The notes beneath the pieces are model-generated. The model was not told the origin of the DNA, did no database searches, and was given only the letters and a program-made list of their open reading frames with translations. Below are positions 5,809 to 15,756 of a stretch of 24,797 bases of DNA, piece by piece. How positions within the stretch are numbered: position 1 is the first letter of the stretch; each line of letters begins with the position of its first letter. The position numbers and the translations under genes are program-made. Source of the DNA: a virus (taxonomy: Duplodnaviria; Caudoviricetes); the IMG/VR virus record IMGVR_UViG_3300020042_000970, positions 1-24,797 of that record. One strand, 5' to 3'.

Positions 5809-6125
5809 TACATTCCAACTTCTTTCATTGTTCTTGATGTTGCTTTATCTATGGTCTTTGCGGCTGGCATGGTACTTGCGTCATACGCCCTGCCCAAAGT
5901 TTCACTAGCTTTTTCAGCTTCAATGATCTGACCCATACGAGTGCCTGCTGGCTGTATACCCTGTGCTCTAGCGTTAGCGTAAGCATCAAGCTCGCCATTC
6001 CATTTAGCACTAGACATTGCTTTACCACTGGCTGCATCGCCAGCGTTCATTTGGATGTTAGAAGCACGTAAACAATCACCCCATGTGGCGTGGTCTTGTG
6101 TGCGACAACCTGTTCTACATGCCAT
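5808..6125 (-). CDS. Hypothetical protein with N-terminal CxxxC..H..C motif (105 aa)
   Basis: MACRTGCRTQDHATWGDC; GAAGGGA upstream; overlaps the glycosyltransferase stop. Confidence 0.8.
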   Translation of the reverse strand: MACRTGCRTQDHATWGDCLRASNIQMNAGDAASGKAMSSAKWNGELDAYANARAQGIQPAGTRMGQIIEAEKASETLGRAYDASTMPAAKTIDKATSRTMKEVGM

Positions 6126-6128
6126 TAG
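6109..6128. repeat. 20-nt direct repeat copy 1 (partner 7281-7300)
   Basis: cctgttctacatgccattag vs cctgttctacaagccattag, 19/20 identical. Confidence 0.85.
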
Positions 6129-7179
6129 TTTGTCCCTTCAGCATGAATTGGTAATTATCAATAAGGCGTTGATCTGCAGGGTTTCCCTCTACTGCTAATC
6201 GTGCCCATTTTTTAGCCGAACCCTTTTTACTTAGGTTCCAGGAAGCAATGGCTAAAAGATCGTATGCTCGCCACCTGTAGATTGAACTGTCAATTAAATA
6301 GTGGCTATCCATTTTAAGTTTATTTACTTTATTAGCTGCATCAAAACATTCTTGCCAGCGTTTCTGCGTATACATGAAATGCGCTAAGGCAAACCATGCT
6401 TCCATCTGGTCTGGAGCTAACTCAGTTCCTTTTAGGAACCAACCAACTGCCCGTTCTGGCTTGCCTAGTTCGACCAGACTATCGCCAGCACCGCGACAAG
6501 CGGCAGCAAGCTCAACAGGCCAGCTACCTTCCACTCGGCTTTCAGAGAATAATTGTTCTGTCTCACGAACTGCGTTCTCCCATTGTCTGTTAAAGTAGTA
6601 TTCTCGAATAAGGTAAAATCTAATGCGGGAATCTCTTGGATCTTCAGCTACACCCATTTGCAATAAATGCAAGTATTGTGACCTTGGTTTACTATCATCT
6701 GGCTTGTGATACACCATAGTTTCCACAATTATGTCTTGCTCTTTGCGTGGCGGGTAAGCCATTGTTACTTCGTGGCAAGGCTTAACCCATCGGTATCCAT
6801 GTCTAGCATGAATACGGTTATTGTTCATCCATTGCTGGCCAGTGTCCCACATAACCCATGCACGTTCCGTGCCTGGAACCCAAGCCTGTCTTAGCTTGTC
6901 AAAGAAGTCTGGGTCTGGAATCTCGTCCATGTCCAAGGAGACACACACATCCACGTCAGCAGGCACAAGGGCCAGTGCTGCATTGCGAGCATCATCAAAG
7001 CGAAAAGGGCTTACGTTGATTTCGTAGGTCTCTATGCGGTATTGGTTAAGTAGTTGTACTGTGTTGTCTGTTGACCCAGTATCTGCTACTATTCGTATGT
7101 CAGCACCTGCTGTAGCTTTGGCCCAGCGAGCTACATGTTTAGATTCATTAAGCGCAATGGCATAAACAGCAATCTTCAT
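6115..7179 (-). CDS. Family 2 (GT-A) glycosyltransferase with C-terminal TPR-like helices (354 aa)
   Basis: IAVYAIALNE, VADTGSTDNT, FDDARNAAL, DxD motif LDMDE and an HE motif, followed by TPR-like repeats (FYLIREYY, EAWFALAHFMY). Confidence 0.9.
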   Translation of the reverse strand: MKIAVYAIALNESKHVARWAKATAGADIRIVADTGSTDNTVQLLNQYRIETYEINVSPFRFDDARNAALALVPADVDVCVSLDMDEIPDPDFFDKLRQAWVPGTERAWVMWDTGQQWMNNNRIHARHGYRWVKPCHEVTMAYPPRKEQDIIVETMVYHKPDDSKPRSQYLHLLQMGVAEDPRDSRIRFYLIREYYFNRQWENAVRETEQLFSESRVEGSWPVELAAACRGAGDSLVELGKPERAVGWFLKGTELAPDQMEAWFALAHFMYTQKRWQECFDAANKVNKLKMDSHYLIDSSIYRWRAYDLLAIASWNLSKKGSAKKWARLAVEGNPADQRLIDNYQFMLKGQTNGM

Positions 7180-13238: not shown

Positions 13239-14198
13239 TTAGGTAAGGTTGATACTTGAACTTGATTCAATACGGTAAAGCGCAGCTTCACGGTAACGCT
13301 TCCAGCCAAGTACGCCATACCATCCGATTGGACGGAAGCGCATCAACTTGTCAACAACTGGGCCAATGATTACATGTGGCTCTTCTGCAATAGCTTCTGC
13401 AAGCGCTTGCTGACCAGCAAGGATGGTGCGGAATACGCGACCACTTGAAAGTCCATCAGTTGTGTTGTATAGACGAGGGGACTCAACGAACATTGCACCT
13501 TCGTAGGTACCGATGGAGCCTGGCCATAGTTGACCTGCACCTGAATCGTTGTATACGTGAGCCTCACGCCATCCACCTGCACCAGTCTCAGCACGAAGAT
13601 CGTGTGAAACTTCAGGGTGGATACCACACCAGTATAGTTCGCCCATACGTGGGACAGCCTTGCCAGCACGAAGCTTGGCTACTGCCTTACGAACGTCAGC
13701 GGACTTAAGGGTGTTTGTGGCACCAATGTAGACAGTGCCAGTTGCGGCAGTGCCTGTTGAGTTGGCTGAATAGATTACGTTAGTTCCACCGCGTAGTTCG
13801 GTCTGAGCTAGGTCATCTAGTGAGTCAGCCATGTTGAAAGCAATAATGTTTGCAATCGCTGGATCAACGTCAGAAAGCGAGAATAATTCAAGCTTACGAG
13901 TTGCCAATGCAGCATTACCGTATTCGTTTAGGGTTACTGATACAGATGTGGTGTTGCCAAGAGCAACTGCATCTGGATCTGTGGTTTCAGTTAATGCTGA
14001 GGTAATCTTAGACATGTCGCTGTAAAGCTGGAACACGACTGAGGAACCTGGCATTGCCTGTTGCGCTGGGCGCTTGTCTGCAACGTCGCGGATCAGTGGG
14101 ATCGAACGAAGGGCAAACTCTACATAACGGTCATAGGCCGCTTGTACCAAGCTGGTACCGAGCGAACTGCCGCCTGTATCTGTAAATGCGTTAGCCAT
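13239..14198 (-). CDS. Major capsid protein (N4-gp56-like family, 319 aa)
   Basis: VTLNEYGNA, IHPEVSHDLR, GSIGTYEGAMFVES and DKLMRFRPIGWYG; follows an acidic scaffold gene; AAGGAGG RBS. Confidence 0.9.
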   Translation of the reverse strand: MANAFTDTGGSSLGTSLVQAAYDRYVEFALRSIPLIRDVADKRPAQQAMPGSSVVFQLYSDMSKITSALTETTDPDAVALGNTTSVSVTLNEYGNAALATRKLELFSLSDVDPAIANIIAFNMADSLDDLAQTELRGGTNVIYSANSTGTAATGTVYIGATNTLKSADVRKAVAKLRAGKAVPRMGELYWCGIHPEVSHDLRAETGAGGWREAHVYNDSGAGQLWPGSIGTYEGAMFVESPRLYNTTDGLSSGRVFRTILAGQQALAEAIAEEPHVIIGPVVDKLMRFRPIGWYGVLGWKRYREAALYRIESSSSINLT

Positions 14199-14204
14199 TT
14201 AGTT

Positions 14205-14221
14205 ACCCCCTCCTTGGGGGT
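14205..14221 (-). promoter_or_regulatory. Capsid RBS embedded in a 6-bp hairpin
   Basis: ACCCCC-AAGGA-GGGGGT; AAGGAGG ends 10 nt before the ATG. Confidence 0.65.
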
Positions 14222-14242
14222 TAGGGTTTGTTGTAGTTGCTG

Positions 14243-14704
14243 TTAACGACCTGTGGACATACCAAAGATCAGTTGATCCAGCTCTTCCTTGCTATTAGTT
14301 GCGGCTAAACGAGAACTTAAATCCTCATCACGACCTGAACTTGTAGCAGTAGAAGTGGATTCCTGAATACGGCGAGCCGATTCTGGAGCCACAATGTCGT
14401 CTGATTGCCCATTGGTTTGATACCCAAATACATCTGAGTATTCATCAAGCCATAGAGCAACCTTTTCGGGTGTATCCGCATCTGCTGGAATGAACGCAGC
14501 AATCTTTGGATTAACGCCCTTGGTTTCCAGGACGTCCTTTACGGTTCTTGTACGGGACTCTGAACGCAACGAAGTAAGTTCATCTCGGAGTTGCTTTGAC
14601 TCTCGTTCAGCTTTCTTCAAAGCCTTGCGAAGGTTTGCAGGACCGCTTTCTTCTTCACTATCGAAGTCGTCGTCTTCGTCGTAATCGTTGTACTGGTTGG
14701 CCAT
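14243..14704 (-). CDS. Probable capsid scaffolding protein (~153 aa)
   Basis: Acidic N-terminus and coiled coil (LRKALKKAERESKQLRDEL), directly upstream of the capsid gene. Start moved to ATG 14704, 8 nt after AAAGGGAG. Confidence 0.75.
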   Translation of the reverse strand: MANQYNDYDEDDDFDSEEESGPANLRKALKKAERESKQLRDELTSLRSESRTRTVKDVLETKGVNPKIAAFIPADADTPEKVALWLDEYSDVFGYQTNGQSDDIVAPESARRIQESTSTATSSGRDEDLSSRLAATNSKEELDQLIFGMSTGR

Positions 14705-14735
14705 AGCAGCCACTCCCTTTCATTGTTAGGTTTAG

Positions 14736-14821
14736 CGCGAACCACAACACAAGCAGGGGAACCTGTATTGGCTTTCACTGTCGGACTTATATACGCTCAC
14801 ACGGGCCGATGGATCTGTGAG
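14736..14821 (-). ncRNA. Candidate structured leader RNA (pseudoknot + hairpin) upstream of scaffold
   Basis: CTCACA/TGTGAG stem whose loop TCGG can pair with downstream CCGA, then an irregular hairpin capped CAGG-TTCC-CCTG. Confidence 0.45.
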
Positions 14822-14824
14822 GAG

Positions 14825-14901
14825 TGGATGTGTGCGGAATCGAACCGCGTGCCGTATCTGTCCGTCATGCGGATTTAGATTCGGTCTAACCTTTCACACC
14901 C
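14825..14901 (-). ncRNA. 77-nt tRNA(Ala)-mimic resembling the tRNA-like domain of tmRNA, with no mRNA-like domain
   Basis: Acceptor GGGTGTG/CACATCC with G3:U70 and discriminator A; unpaired AAAGGTTAGA D-loop; CCGAATCT/AGATACGG + TCCG/CGGA long arm; GCGG-TTCGATT-CCGC T-arm. Confidence 0.75.
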
Positions 14902-14907
14902 TTAGGA

Positions 14908-15756
14908 CTAAAACTGTCCCGACTTGCCTGTCTTTAATGAACCAGCGGCTACGCCAGACTGTCCACTAAAAGTTGATGTTTCCATTTGTCCAAGCTTTTG
15001 ACGCTTGCGCTTTGCAGACTCAAGACCAGAGAAGACCTCTTGCTCTGCAGTAGTCTGGTCATAAGTCTGACCATAAACTTGACCAAGTTTTGAAGCGGTT
15101 GGAAGTATTCCAGCAATAGCGCCGTAACCTTGTTCTGCACTGTATCCAGTAGCAGGGCCACGTTGTGCAAATTGCTCTCCAAGGTTAGTTGCTTGTAGAC
15201 CTTGTTTAACAGCAGCAGTTCCAAACTCAACGGCCTTAGCTTGCCTCTCAACAAGAGGTAGTGCACGCTCTGGGTCTAACATAAATGCGGTCATCATGCC
15301 TTCGTCAATACCGTAGATATCCCGTAAAGCTTTTGTGTACGCTGGATCTGTATTGTTTACAGCGCGAGCTGCTGAATCTGCTCGTAGTTTAATTTCACTA
15401 GCAGAAACATCTTGGCCAATAAACCCAGAGAAATCATCTGGACTATCATAGAAACCAACGGGAAGCCCAGCATCTTTAAGAGTTGCTCGGTAAGCTTCTT
15501 CTGTTGCTAGGTACTGGGATGGACTCAAAGGAGCCAGCCCATTTTTAATGCGGGTTTCATTGGCAGAAAATCTTTGTTTGTACACTGTTGTGTTTGGCAA
15601 TAGATCTGAAACAATTTGAGCTGGTGTGTAAATTGCTTGCCATCCAGTAATTTGTGGAAGCAATTCGTTAATTTGAGAATTAGTAAACCCAAGGTCTTTA
15701 AGAGTTTTAGTAAAGACTTCACGGGCATCCATTGGTGGTACTACTGGTTCAGCCAT
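14908..15756 (-). CDS. Probable internal virion/ejection protein (282 aa)
   Basis: Ala/Gln-rich helical ORF coupled by TAATG; last of four large genes after the portal. Confidence 0.55.
   Translation of the reverse strand: MAEPVVPPMDAREVFTKTLKDLGFTNSQINELLPQITGWQAIYTPAQIVSDLLPNTTVYKQRFSANETRIKNGLAPLSPSQYLATEEAYRATLKDAGLPVGFYDSPDDFSGFIGQDVSASEIKLRADSAARAVNNTDPAYTKALRDIYGIDEGMMTAFMLDPERALPLVERQAKAVEFGTAAVKQGLQATNLGEQFAQRGPATGYSAEQGYGAIAGILPTASKLGQVYGQTYDQTTAEQEVFSGLESAKRKRQKLGQMETSTFSGQSGVAAGSLKTGKSGQF

Follow-up and report, generated by a model that had tools for sequence, protein, structure and literature searches.

Why should a phage carry, shortly before its capsid genes, an RNA that resembles the tRNA-like domain (TLD) of tmRNA and nothing else of that molecule? 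tmRNA is the bacterial RNA that frees stalled ribosomes and marks the unfinished protein for destruction. The question is raised by a 24.8-kb virus record (IMG/VR record IMGVR_UViG_3300020042_000970, 24,797 nucleotides), the whole of which is called the window here, and in which a preliminary description made from the letters alone had proposed such an RNA on the minus strand.

The element is set among virion genes (Table 1) and ends 120 nt before the gene of a protein that we call a putative scaffold from its position before the capsid gene; position likewise makes the product of the upstream gene a likely virion protein. The nearest named capsid proteins belong to Streptomyces phages and are 53-55% identical. 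The capsid match is split in two in Caudovirales sp. ct2KA10 (with about 240 extra bases) and in Streptomyces phage JXY1 (H1, H2, H30, H31), possibly by an intron or a frameshift. Elsewhere in the window, a glycosyltransferase family 2 gene with TPR repeats lies among the tail genes (6115-7179, minus strand). All five near-complete relatives (38-41 kb) carry one copy of the element each and encode WhiB, so the host is likely an actinobacterium; a search of these five for tyrosine integrases and resolvases (PF00589, PF00239) returned none, and the group likely consists of lytic phages of actinobacteria.

Table 1. Features of the locus and of the alternative RNAs found in related loci (window coordinates unless a contig is named)
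Feature	Position	Strand	Basis or remark
Tag-less mini-tmRNA (tRNA-like domain only)	14825..14901	minus	77 nt up to the discriminator; sequence, Rfam, fold, family models
Acceptor stem, 5' strand (G3 = 14899)	14895..14901	minus	sequence and fold
Stemless 10-nt D-loop with GG, ending GA	14885..14894	minus	fold; aligns to tmRNA D-loop
Long arm (P2 equivalent)	14852..14884	minus	fold, family covariation, DS6A cap
3-nt linker CAC and T-arm	14833..14851	minus	sequence and fold
Acceptor stem, 3' strand (U70 = 14828, discriminator A = 14825)	14825..14832	minus	sequence and fold
Structured 5' leader of putative scaffold gene	14705..14824	minus	covariation
Upstream gene, 282 aa, phrog_8424 (unknown function)	14908..15756	minus	stop 6 nt before the RNA
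Putative scaffold protein, 153 aa, phrog_7813 (unknown function)	14243..14704	minus	
Major capsid protein, 319 aa	13239..14198	minus	phrog_1357 E 9e-78, PF13252
45-51-nt armless tRNA-like RNAs	L002:1336-1380, L063:1038-1082, L067, L068, L069:1033-1079, L142:1033-1078		

The minus-strand sequence matched the first reading exactly (14901-14825), and fold prediction reproduced the structure drawn for it, a 7-bp acceptor stem with G3:U70, a stemless D-loop, an interrupted arm closed by a 5-nt loop and a T-arm, at -26 kcal/mol (z -2.8; 1 of 200 shuffles was equally stable). The long arm begins with an 8-position helix that includes one A-A mismatch, continues through an internal loop rich in A and ends in a cap, itself a 4-bp hairpin around the 5-nt loop. 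The T-arm combines a canonical 7-nt T-loop with a stem of only four standard pairs, followed by an extra, unpaired A (or a C-A pair). The discriminator A is directly followed by CTC and CCA is therefore not encoded, as had been stated.

The preliminary description had also foreseen that an RNA devoid of an anticodon arm could escape standard finders while giving a partial match to both ends of the tmRNA model, and this is what happened. ARAGORN called 0 genes over the whole window, and no Rfam family reached its gathering score there. Under the E-value threshold, the highest-ranking match is to RF00023, the tmRNA model (21.3 bits, E 2.3e-6, gathering 47; three lower-scoring overlaps of the same clan are hidden in this result), which covers both TLD halves, about 17 nt replacing 308 model positions. 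The RNA thus shares with standard tmRNA the 5' and 3' TLD segments with their G3:U70 acceptor and A discriminator, the stemless GG D-loop, P2, the NAC linker and a canonical T-arm, but it has no mRNA-like domain: the pseudoknot ring, the resume codon and the tag reading frame are absent, P2 is closed by the short cap, and 77 nt compare with 341-392 nt in the full-length tmRNAs examined. SmpB and AlaRS contact positions were transferred to the element on a numbering that we take to apply here. Recognition of G3:U70 and contacts of SmpB with the D-loop and linker are described in PMC8363625.

The element could in principle have come from an attachment site as a remnant, from a permuted tmRNA gene as one of its halves, or from an ordinary tRNA that broke, given that phages often carry tmRNA fragments at attP (here Gordonia phage Yeezy) or permuted tmRNA genes (S-CRM01) and that a real tRNA-Tyr sits at the same place in one relative. 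However, both gene ends are present in the RNA, and the two TLD halves are contiguous, paired and in standard order; the match to the permuted model RF04321 is at chance level (E 5.5); the near-complete relatives lack the integrases and resolvases searched for; and a D-stem and an anticodon arm are missing (ARAGORN, fold), ordinary tRNAs scoring at most 42.8 bits in the family model R2 introduced below. The family-wide covariation described further on largely refutes these three origins, which we regard as most improbable. Synechococcus phage S-CRM01 itself has an apparent permuted (two-piece) tmRNA gene after a tRNA-Leu, unannotated in its record (L473:1466-1660).

Tag-less mini-tmRNAs are a class already known: for mycobacteriophage DS6A, PMC4131195 records a tmRNA of 'TLD only' type, which we located at 28478-28557 of record JN698994 (tmRNA Website tmID 11587). 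Both RNAs are phage-encoded and about 80 nt long, with a G3:U70 acceptor, a stemless GG D-loop, a P2 with an A-rich internal loop and a short cap hairpin, the linker CAC and a T-arm; in both, CCA is not encoded, and neither phage has an SmpB gene. They differ in sequence and in the 5-bp T-stem and 13-nt D-loop of DS6A, whose copy lies between gp33 and gp34 of a 60-kb integrase-bearing phage, unlike the window copy, which occupies a swappable slot of the head module in a 38-41-kb, integrase-less phage group. Owing to its different T-stem, the DS6A RNA escaped our regular-expression search and was found with Rfam. The family model R2, whose 74 training hits include neither the window nor L223 (two of the 74 being ends of full tmRNAs) and whose alignment was fitted to a model R1 that had contained both, gave 60.0 bits to DS6A, 55.5 to the window and 42.8 to the best ordinary tRNA; R1, with the window in its training set, gave the window 59.5. 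The tag-less mini-tmRNA at 14825-14901 is thus real and conserved, and it joins the kind known from DS6A as a somewhat divergent member.

How common is this kind? A pattern of GGG, D-loop GG, AC linker, T-arm and UCCA end found 120 IMG/VR loci in 4 of the 64 parts of the collection, which corresponds to about 2,000 stretches overall. Of these loci, 84 (78 distinct) were TLD-like, having a perfect acceptor and T-stem, at least 5 of 6 arm pairs and no ARAGORN tRNA call, although three of them (L230, L246, L260) also overlap longer ARAGORN tmRNA calls. The other 36 comprise 9 with a weaker arm, 3 called as tRNA and 24 with an imperfect acceptor, 13 of which overlap ARAGORN tmRNA calls. This suggests roughly 1,400 IMG/VR stretches with tag-less mini-tmRNAs, a redundant and uncorrected figure from a pattern whose reach excludes the window's own 4-bp T-stem type. 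In one set of 68 distinct census elements, the next base is C in all and CCA follows in 23, a demand that the pattern did not make. The end of the D-loop is variable (GA in 34 of 68, in the script's register), and between GG and GA the window subfamily has 3 nt against a family norm of 4. At the far end of the arm, the A-rich loop with a CC...GG cap recurs in 41 of 81 distinct elements (3.7 in shuffles) and sits where full tmRNAs continue P2. Three shorter members (L215, L277, L293; 64-65 nt) have a plain hairpin arm and the size reported for CDS-less plastid tmRNAs.

The preliminary description had predicted compensatory changes and a conserved G3:U70 among homologues, and alignments, census and controls bear out both. 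A plain alignment of the window with 48 census elements chosen for similar length had 90.1% of cells paired (64.9% when shuffled) and 270 double changes (87 when shuffled, with 0 of 500 shuffles reaching this count), every variable helix covarying. In a model-fitted alignment of 70 sequences, 94.6% of cells were paired, and double changes occur across the family in each of the 6 modelled P2 pairs and each of the 3 cap pairs; the counts in both alignments lean upward because the sequences were chosen by a pairing filter. As the census pattern itself fixes G3:U70, controls were run with two other 3:70 pairs, G3:C70 and A3:U70. Over the whole collection, the G3:C70 pattern gave 108 hits, of which 66 are ordinary tRNAs and 5 are TLD-like. 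The A3:U70 pattern, sampled for 121 of about 550 hits, gave no TLD-like element, 11 tRNAs, 3 weak-armed elements and 44 G3:U70 elements caught again by chance. The alanine identity is thus under selection. The few TLD-like RNAs with G3:C70 include L389:151-230, L365:151-231 and L369:151-240; in L389, otherwise close to the G3:U70 element L264, the G-U pair has shifted to 4:69.

Members of the family occur in varied surroundings. None of the 34 carrier phage records searched, of which 16 reach a completeness of at least 90%, encodes SmpB. In the 72 of 80 viral loci that have a perfect acceptor, the direct neighbour is a head gene in 15 (13 of them probably one phage group) and a replication gene in 14, and 11 elements have a tRNA no more than 500 nt away. 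In GTDB genomes, 36 loci fitted a stricter pattern; the acceptor is perfect in 28 of them (script's register), and 5 are inside tRNA arrays; all five bacterial carrier genomes tested have a full tmRNA elsewhere. The arrays, of up to 20 genes (L456:6001-6079, L454, L461, L452, L460), belong to Streptomyces, Christensenella, Cellulosimicrobium and an acidobacterial bin. Like phage tRNAs, then, mini-tmRNAs can stand in tRNA arrays, and a tRNA-Tyr(GTA) can fill the slot of the window copy; unlike phage tRNAs, they cannot decode, having neither a D-stem nor an anticodon arm.

Could the window copy nevertheless be a weakened or decaying branch with little function left? Its D-loop is short, its T-stem has 4 bp, a private G-to-C change makes its linker CAC (GAC or AAC in the closest relatives), its Rfam score of 21.3 bits falls below the 38.9-43.2 of L043, L016 and DS6A, and a phage with a 96% identical scaffold (L002) has replaced it. 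Against decay, the 4-bp T-stem is common to all close relatives and recurs in L034, with a different arm and at 56% scaffold identity; CAC is also the linker of DS6A and of 5 of 68 census elements; and the acceptor stem with G3:U70 is intact in every close relative. We therefore judge decay very unlikely.

The gap before the scaffold gene was compared across related phages. The scaffold-homologue loci (207) reduce to 95 distinct upstream regions, and a scan based on the leader that follows the element gave 39 loci, 4 of which had no scaffold gene and were dropped as chance. Among the remaining 35, the slot holds a TLD RNA in 24 (counting L614, the contig of L034), and in the other 11 a 45-51-nt armless RNA (7 loci), a tRNA-Tyr(GTA) (1) or nothing (3). 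The mini-tmRNA is thus dispensable or replaceable in this group. All 24 TLD-type loci, which span 36-97% scaffold identity, keep G3:U70 and the capped arm while their stems change in pairs. In the armless RNAs, an acceptor-like stem that shows paired changes is combined with a single small hairpin and a T-like arm whose loop is non-canonical; they have no G3:U70 and match neither Rfam nor the family model. The tRNA-Tyr, in L064 (the same contig as L622:621-701), is an ordinary one. On a quick tree of scaffold and capsid (55 rows, restricted to loci with enough capsid and upstream sequence), 5 changes are required to account for the 5 armless rows and 7 for the TLD label, and in each case well-supported branches force at least 4; the sister of one armless row is the tRNA-Tyr row and that of another is a TLD row (support 99), and the slot is empty throughout a 28-row sister group. 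This scatter indicates that the content of the slot was swapped repeatedly. In three contigs (L041, L043/L629, L631), an insert with two predicted hairpins lies about 80 nt upstream of the mini-tmRNA, possibly another small RNA of the slot.

Whatever their kind, all slot RNAs have their ends precisely where one and the same leader starts. One may thus ask whether the slot requires just any RNA with an acceptor stem, whose excision by tRNA processing would cut free a scaffold-capsid mRNA with the leader at its 5' end. That three unrelated RNAs share this end point, that they are scattered over the scaffold-capsid tree and that a scan of 14100-15300 found no sigma-70-like site (actinophage promoters may differ) all fit such punctuation in cis. 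Yet the slot is empty in the 3 close loci and the sister group just mentioned, mere punctuation needs neither G3:U70 nor a capped arm, and the family lives elsewhere in tRNA arrays and replication modules, which makes this explanation quite unlikely in our opinion.

The leader is an RNA in its own right, separate from the mini-tmRNA, conserved and unannotated. It consists, in order, of a pseudoknot, an interrupted hairpin with a C-rich loop and the Shine-Dalgarno site. Across 31 sequences, 18 of 23 pairs show double changes and 92.4% of cells are paired, against 70.7%. The leader also stands in relatives with an empty slot and is kept down to about 36% scaffold identity; Rfam has no match for it. 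The C-rich loop complements the Shine-Dalgarno site in part, and the leader is a candidate element of translational autoregulation. When the whole 211-nt intergenic region was folded at once, an alternative structure resulted that was no better than shuffles (z -0.15), so that the modular fold of mini-tmRNA and leader rests on covariation. An HDV-like (theta) ribozyme behind the mini-tmRNA was considered and rejected: on inspection, the leader pseudoknot does not contain the nested P3 that we assume for this fold, and Rfam gave no match.

RNA libraries contributed little to the question of processing. Nine RNA runs were found, each with 4-6% of the stretch's words, and eight were compared. Their sequences are assembled contigs of relatives, mostly 90-95% alike, that may derive from DNA and do not display RNA ends. 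Three of them (X3, 14604-14938; X5, 14803-14915; X9, 14821-15048; depth 2-4) span the element with flanks and carry neither an added CCA nor a mature 5' end, and a fourth, X2, with a depth of 17, runs into an adapter at 14809 and ends there. We accordingly gave these data no weight on processing.

What, then, might the RNA do? We consider it fairly probable that the mini-tmRNA enters stalled ribosomes with the help of host SmpB and EF-Tu, in competition with host tmRNA, and adds a single alanine and no tag. The proposal builds on the sequence, fold, family membership and covariation of the RNA, on the selection for G3:U70, on the absence of SmpB from the carriers searched and on the position next to the capsid genes. 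The mini-tmRNA would be transcribed together with the virion genes from upstream, the 6-nt spacer leaving no room for a promoter. Host RNase P would cut its 5' end, host tRNA nucleases would trim the 3' end to the encoded C, CCA would be completed, and AlaRS would charge the product with alanine; the proposed pathway, up to the binding of SmpB and EF-Tu, follows established knowledge. Once bound by host SmpB and EF-Tu, the alanylated RNA would compete with host tmRNA for stalled ribosomes, and a single alanine, with no degradation tag, would be added to the nascent chain. The alanyl-peptide could then be released by a host route, either drop-off followed by peptidyl-tRNA hydrolase or an alternative rescue factor, and the phage would benefit from less tagging and destruction of its proteins at the peak of late translation. 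Peptidyl-mini-tmRNA might also block the ribosome rather than free it. Peptidyl transfer to a TLD-only tmRNA has been observed in vitro (PMC3895274).

A rival possibility is that the RNA never acts on the ribosome and is a sponge for host SmpB (and EF-Tu), or a decoy that absorbs the nucleases and sensors of defences directed against tmRNA or tRNA. According to PMC4131195, citing Mao 2009, tmRNA is strongly inhibited by a TLD-like molecule, chargeable or not, and titration of SmpB may be the reason (PMC11915505 attributes this inhibition to the DS6A form itself, PMC4131195 to a similar molecule); inhibition is thus no proof of ribosome entry. The RNA would be made in quantity beside the capsid genes. 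A head gene is the direct neighbour in 15 of 72 unrelated viral loci, yet 13 of these are probably one group and replication genes adjoin another 14. There are defence systems whose SmpB-like domains are predicted to bind tmRNA (PMC11090510), and a slot that also takes tRNA-Tyr and armless RNAs is what one would expect of a decoy locus under diversifying selection. However, a pure SmpB sponge would need neither the nearly invariant G3:U70 nor the conserved A-rich loop and cap. Because the alanine identity is kept although simple inhibition reportedly needs none, we favour ribosome entry and hold a sponge or decoy to be rather unlikely.

Forms of tmRNA without a CDS are also known from organelles. 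PMC11915505 describes them in mitochondria and plastids (jakobid and oomycete mitochondria, and genes of about 65 nt in Mallomonadaceae plastids), and reports that, of 97,179 sequences, 79 are phage tmRNAs and 9 are classed as 'standard, no CDS'. Compared by description, the organellar molecules share with the window RNA a TLD without tag frame and a separately encoded SmpB; they are, however, the sole tmRNA of their compartment and mostly permuted, whereas the phage RNA is an extra copy in a cell that likely has a full tmRNA. A BLAST search with one family member gave no full-length match among 210 records of named phages; two matches taken further proved to be the permuted tmRNA gene of S-CRM01 and the attP fragment of Yeezy. 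The accessible literature (PMC10690425, PMC10085705, PMC8012679, PMC3929946 and PMC11662646 included) does not describe the form as widespread in phages.

Specialists would find two things new here: how broad the family is, and the swappable slot together with its two further unannotated RNAs, the 45-51-nt armless tRNA mimic and the pseudoknot leader of the scaffold-capsid genes. The scale is of the order of a thousand IMG/VR stretches, against the nine curated-database entries without a CDS. We tentatively suggest, as a possibility rather than an expectation, that tag-less mini-tmRNAs are a common, overlooked class of phage RNAs that provide rescue with one alanine and no degron, and that the mini-tmRNA is here one allele of a swapped cassette whose other alleles, the armless tRNA mimic and tRNA-Tyr, counter different translation-level defences. 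If this is true, phages would routinely manipulate ribosome rescue through an RNA that ARAGORN and the Rfam thresholds miss. What a tmRNA lacking a tag frame does is a question raised for mitochondria, for some plastids and for DS6A alike (PMC11915505). With its size, its diversity and its near-invariant alanine identity, the phage family would offer many natural variants for probing that role, and the swappable slot would provide near-isogenic phages that differ in this RNA.
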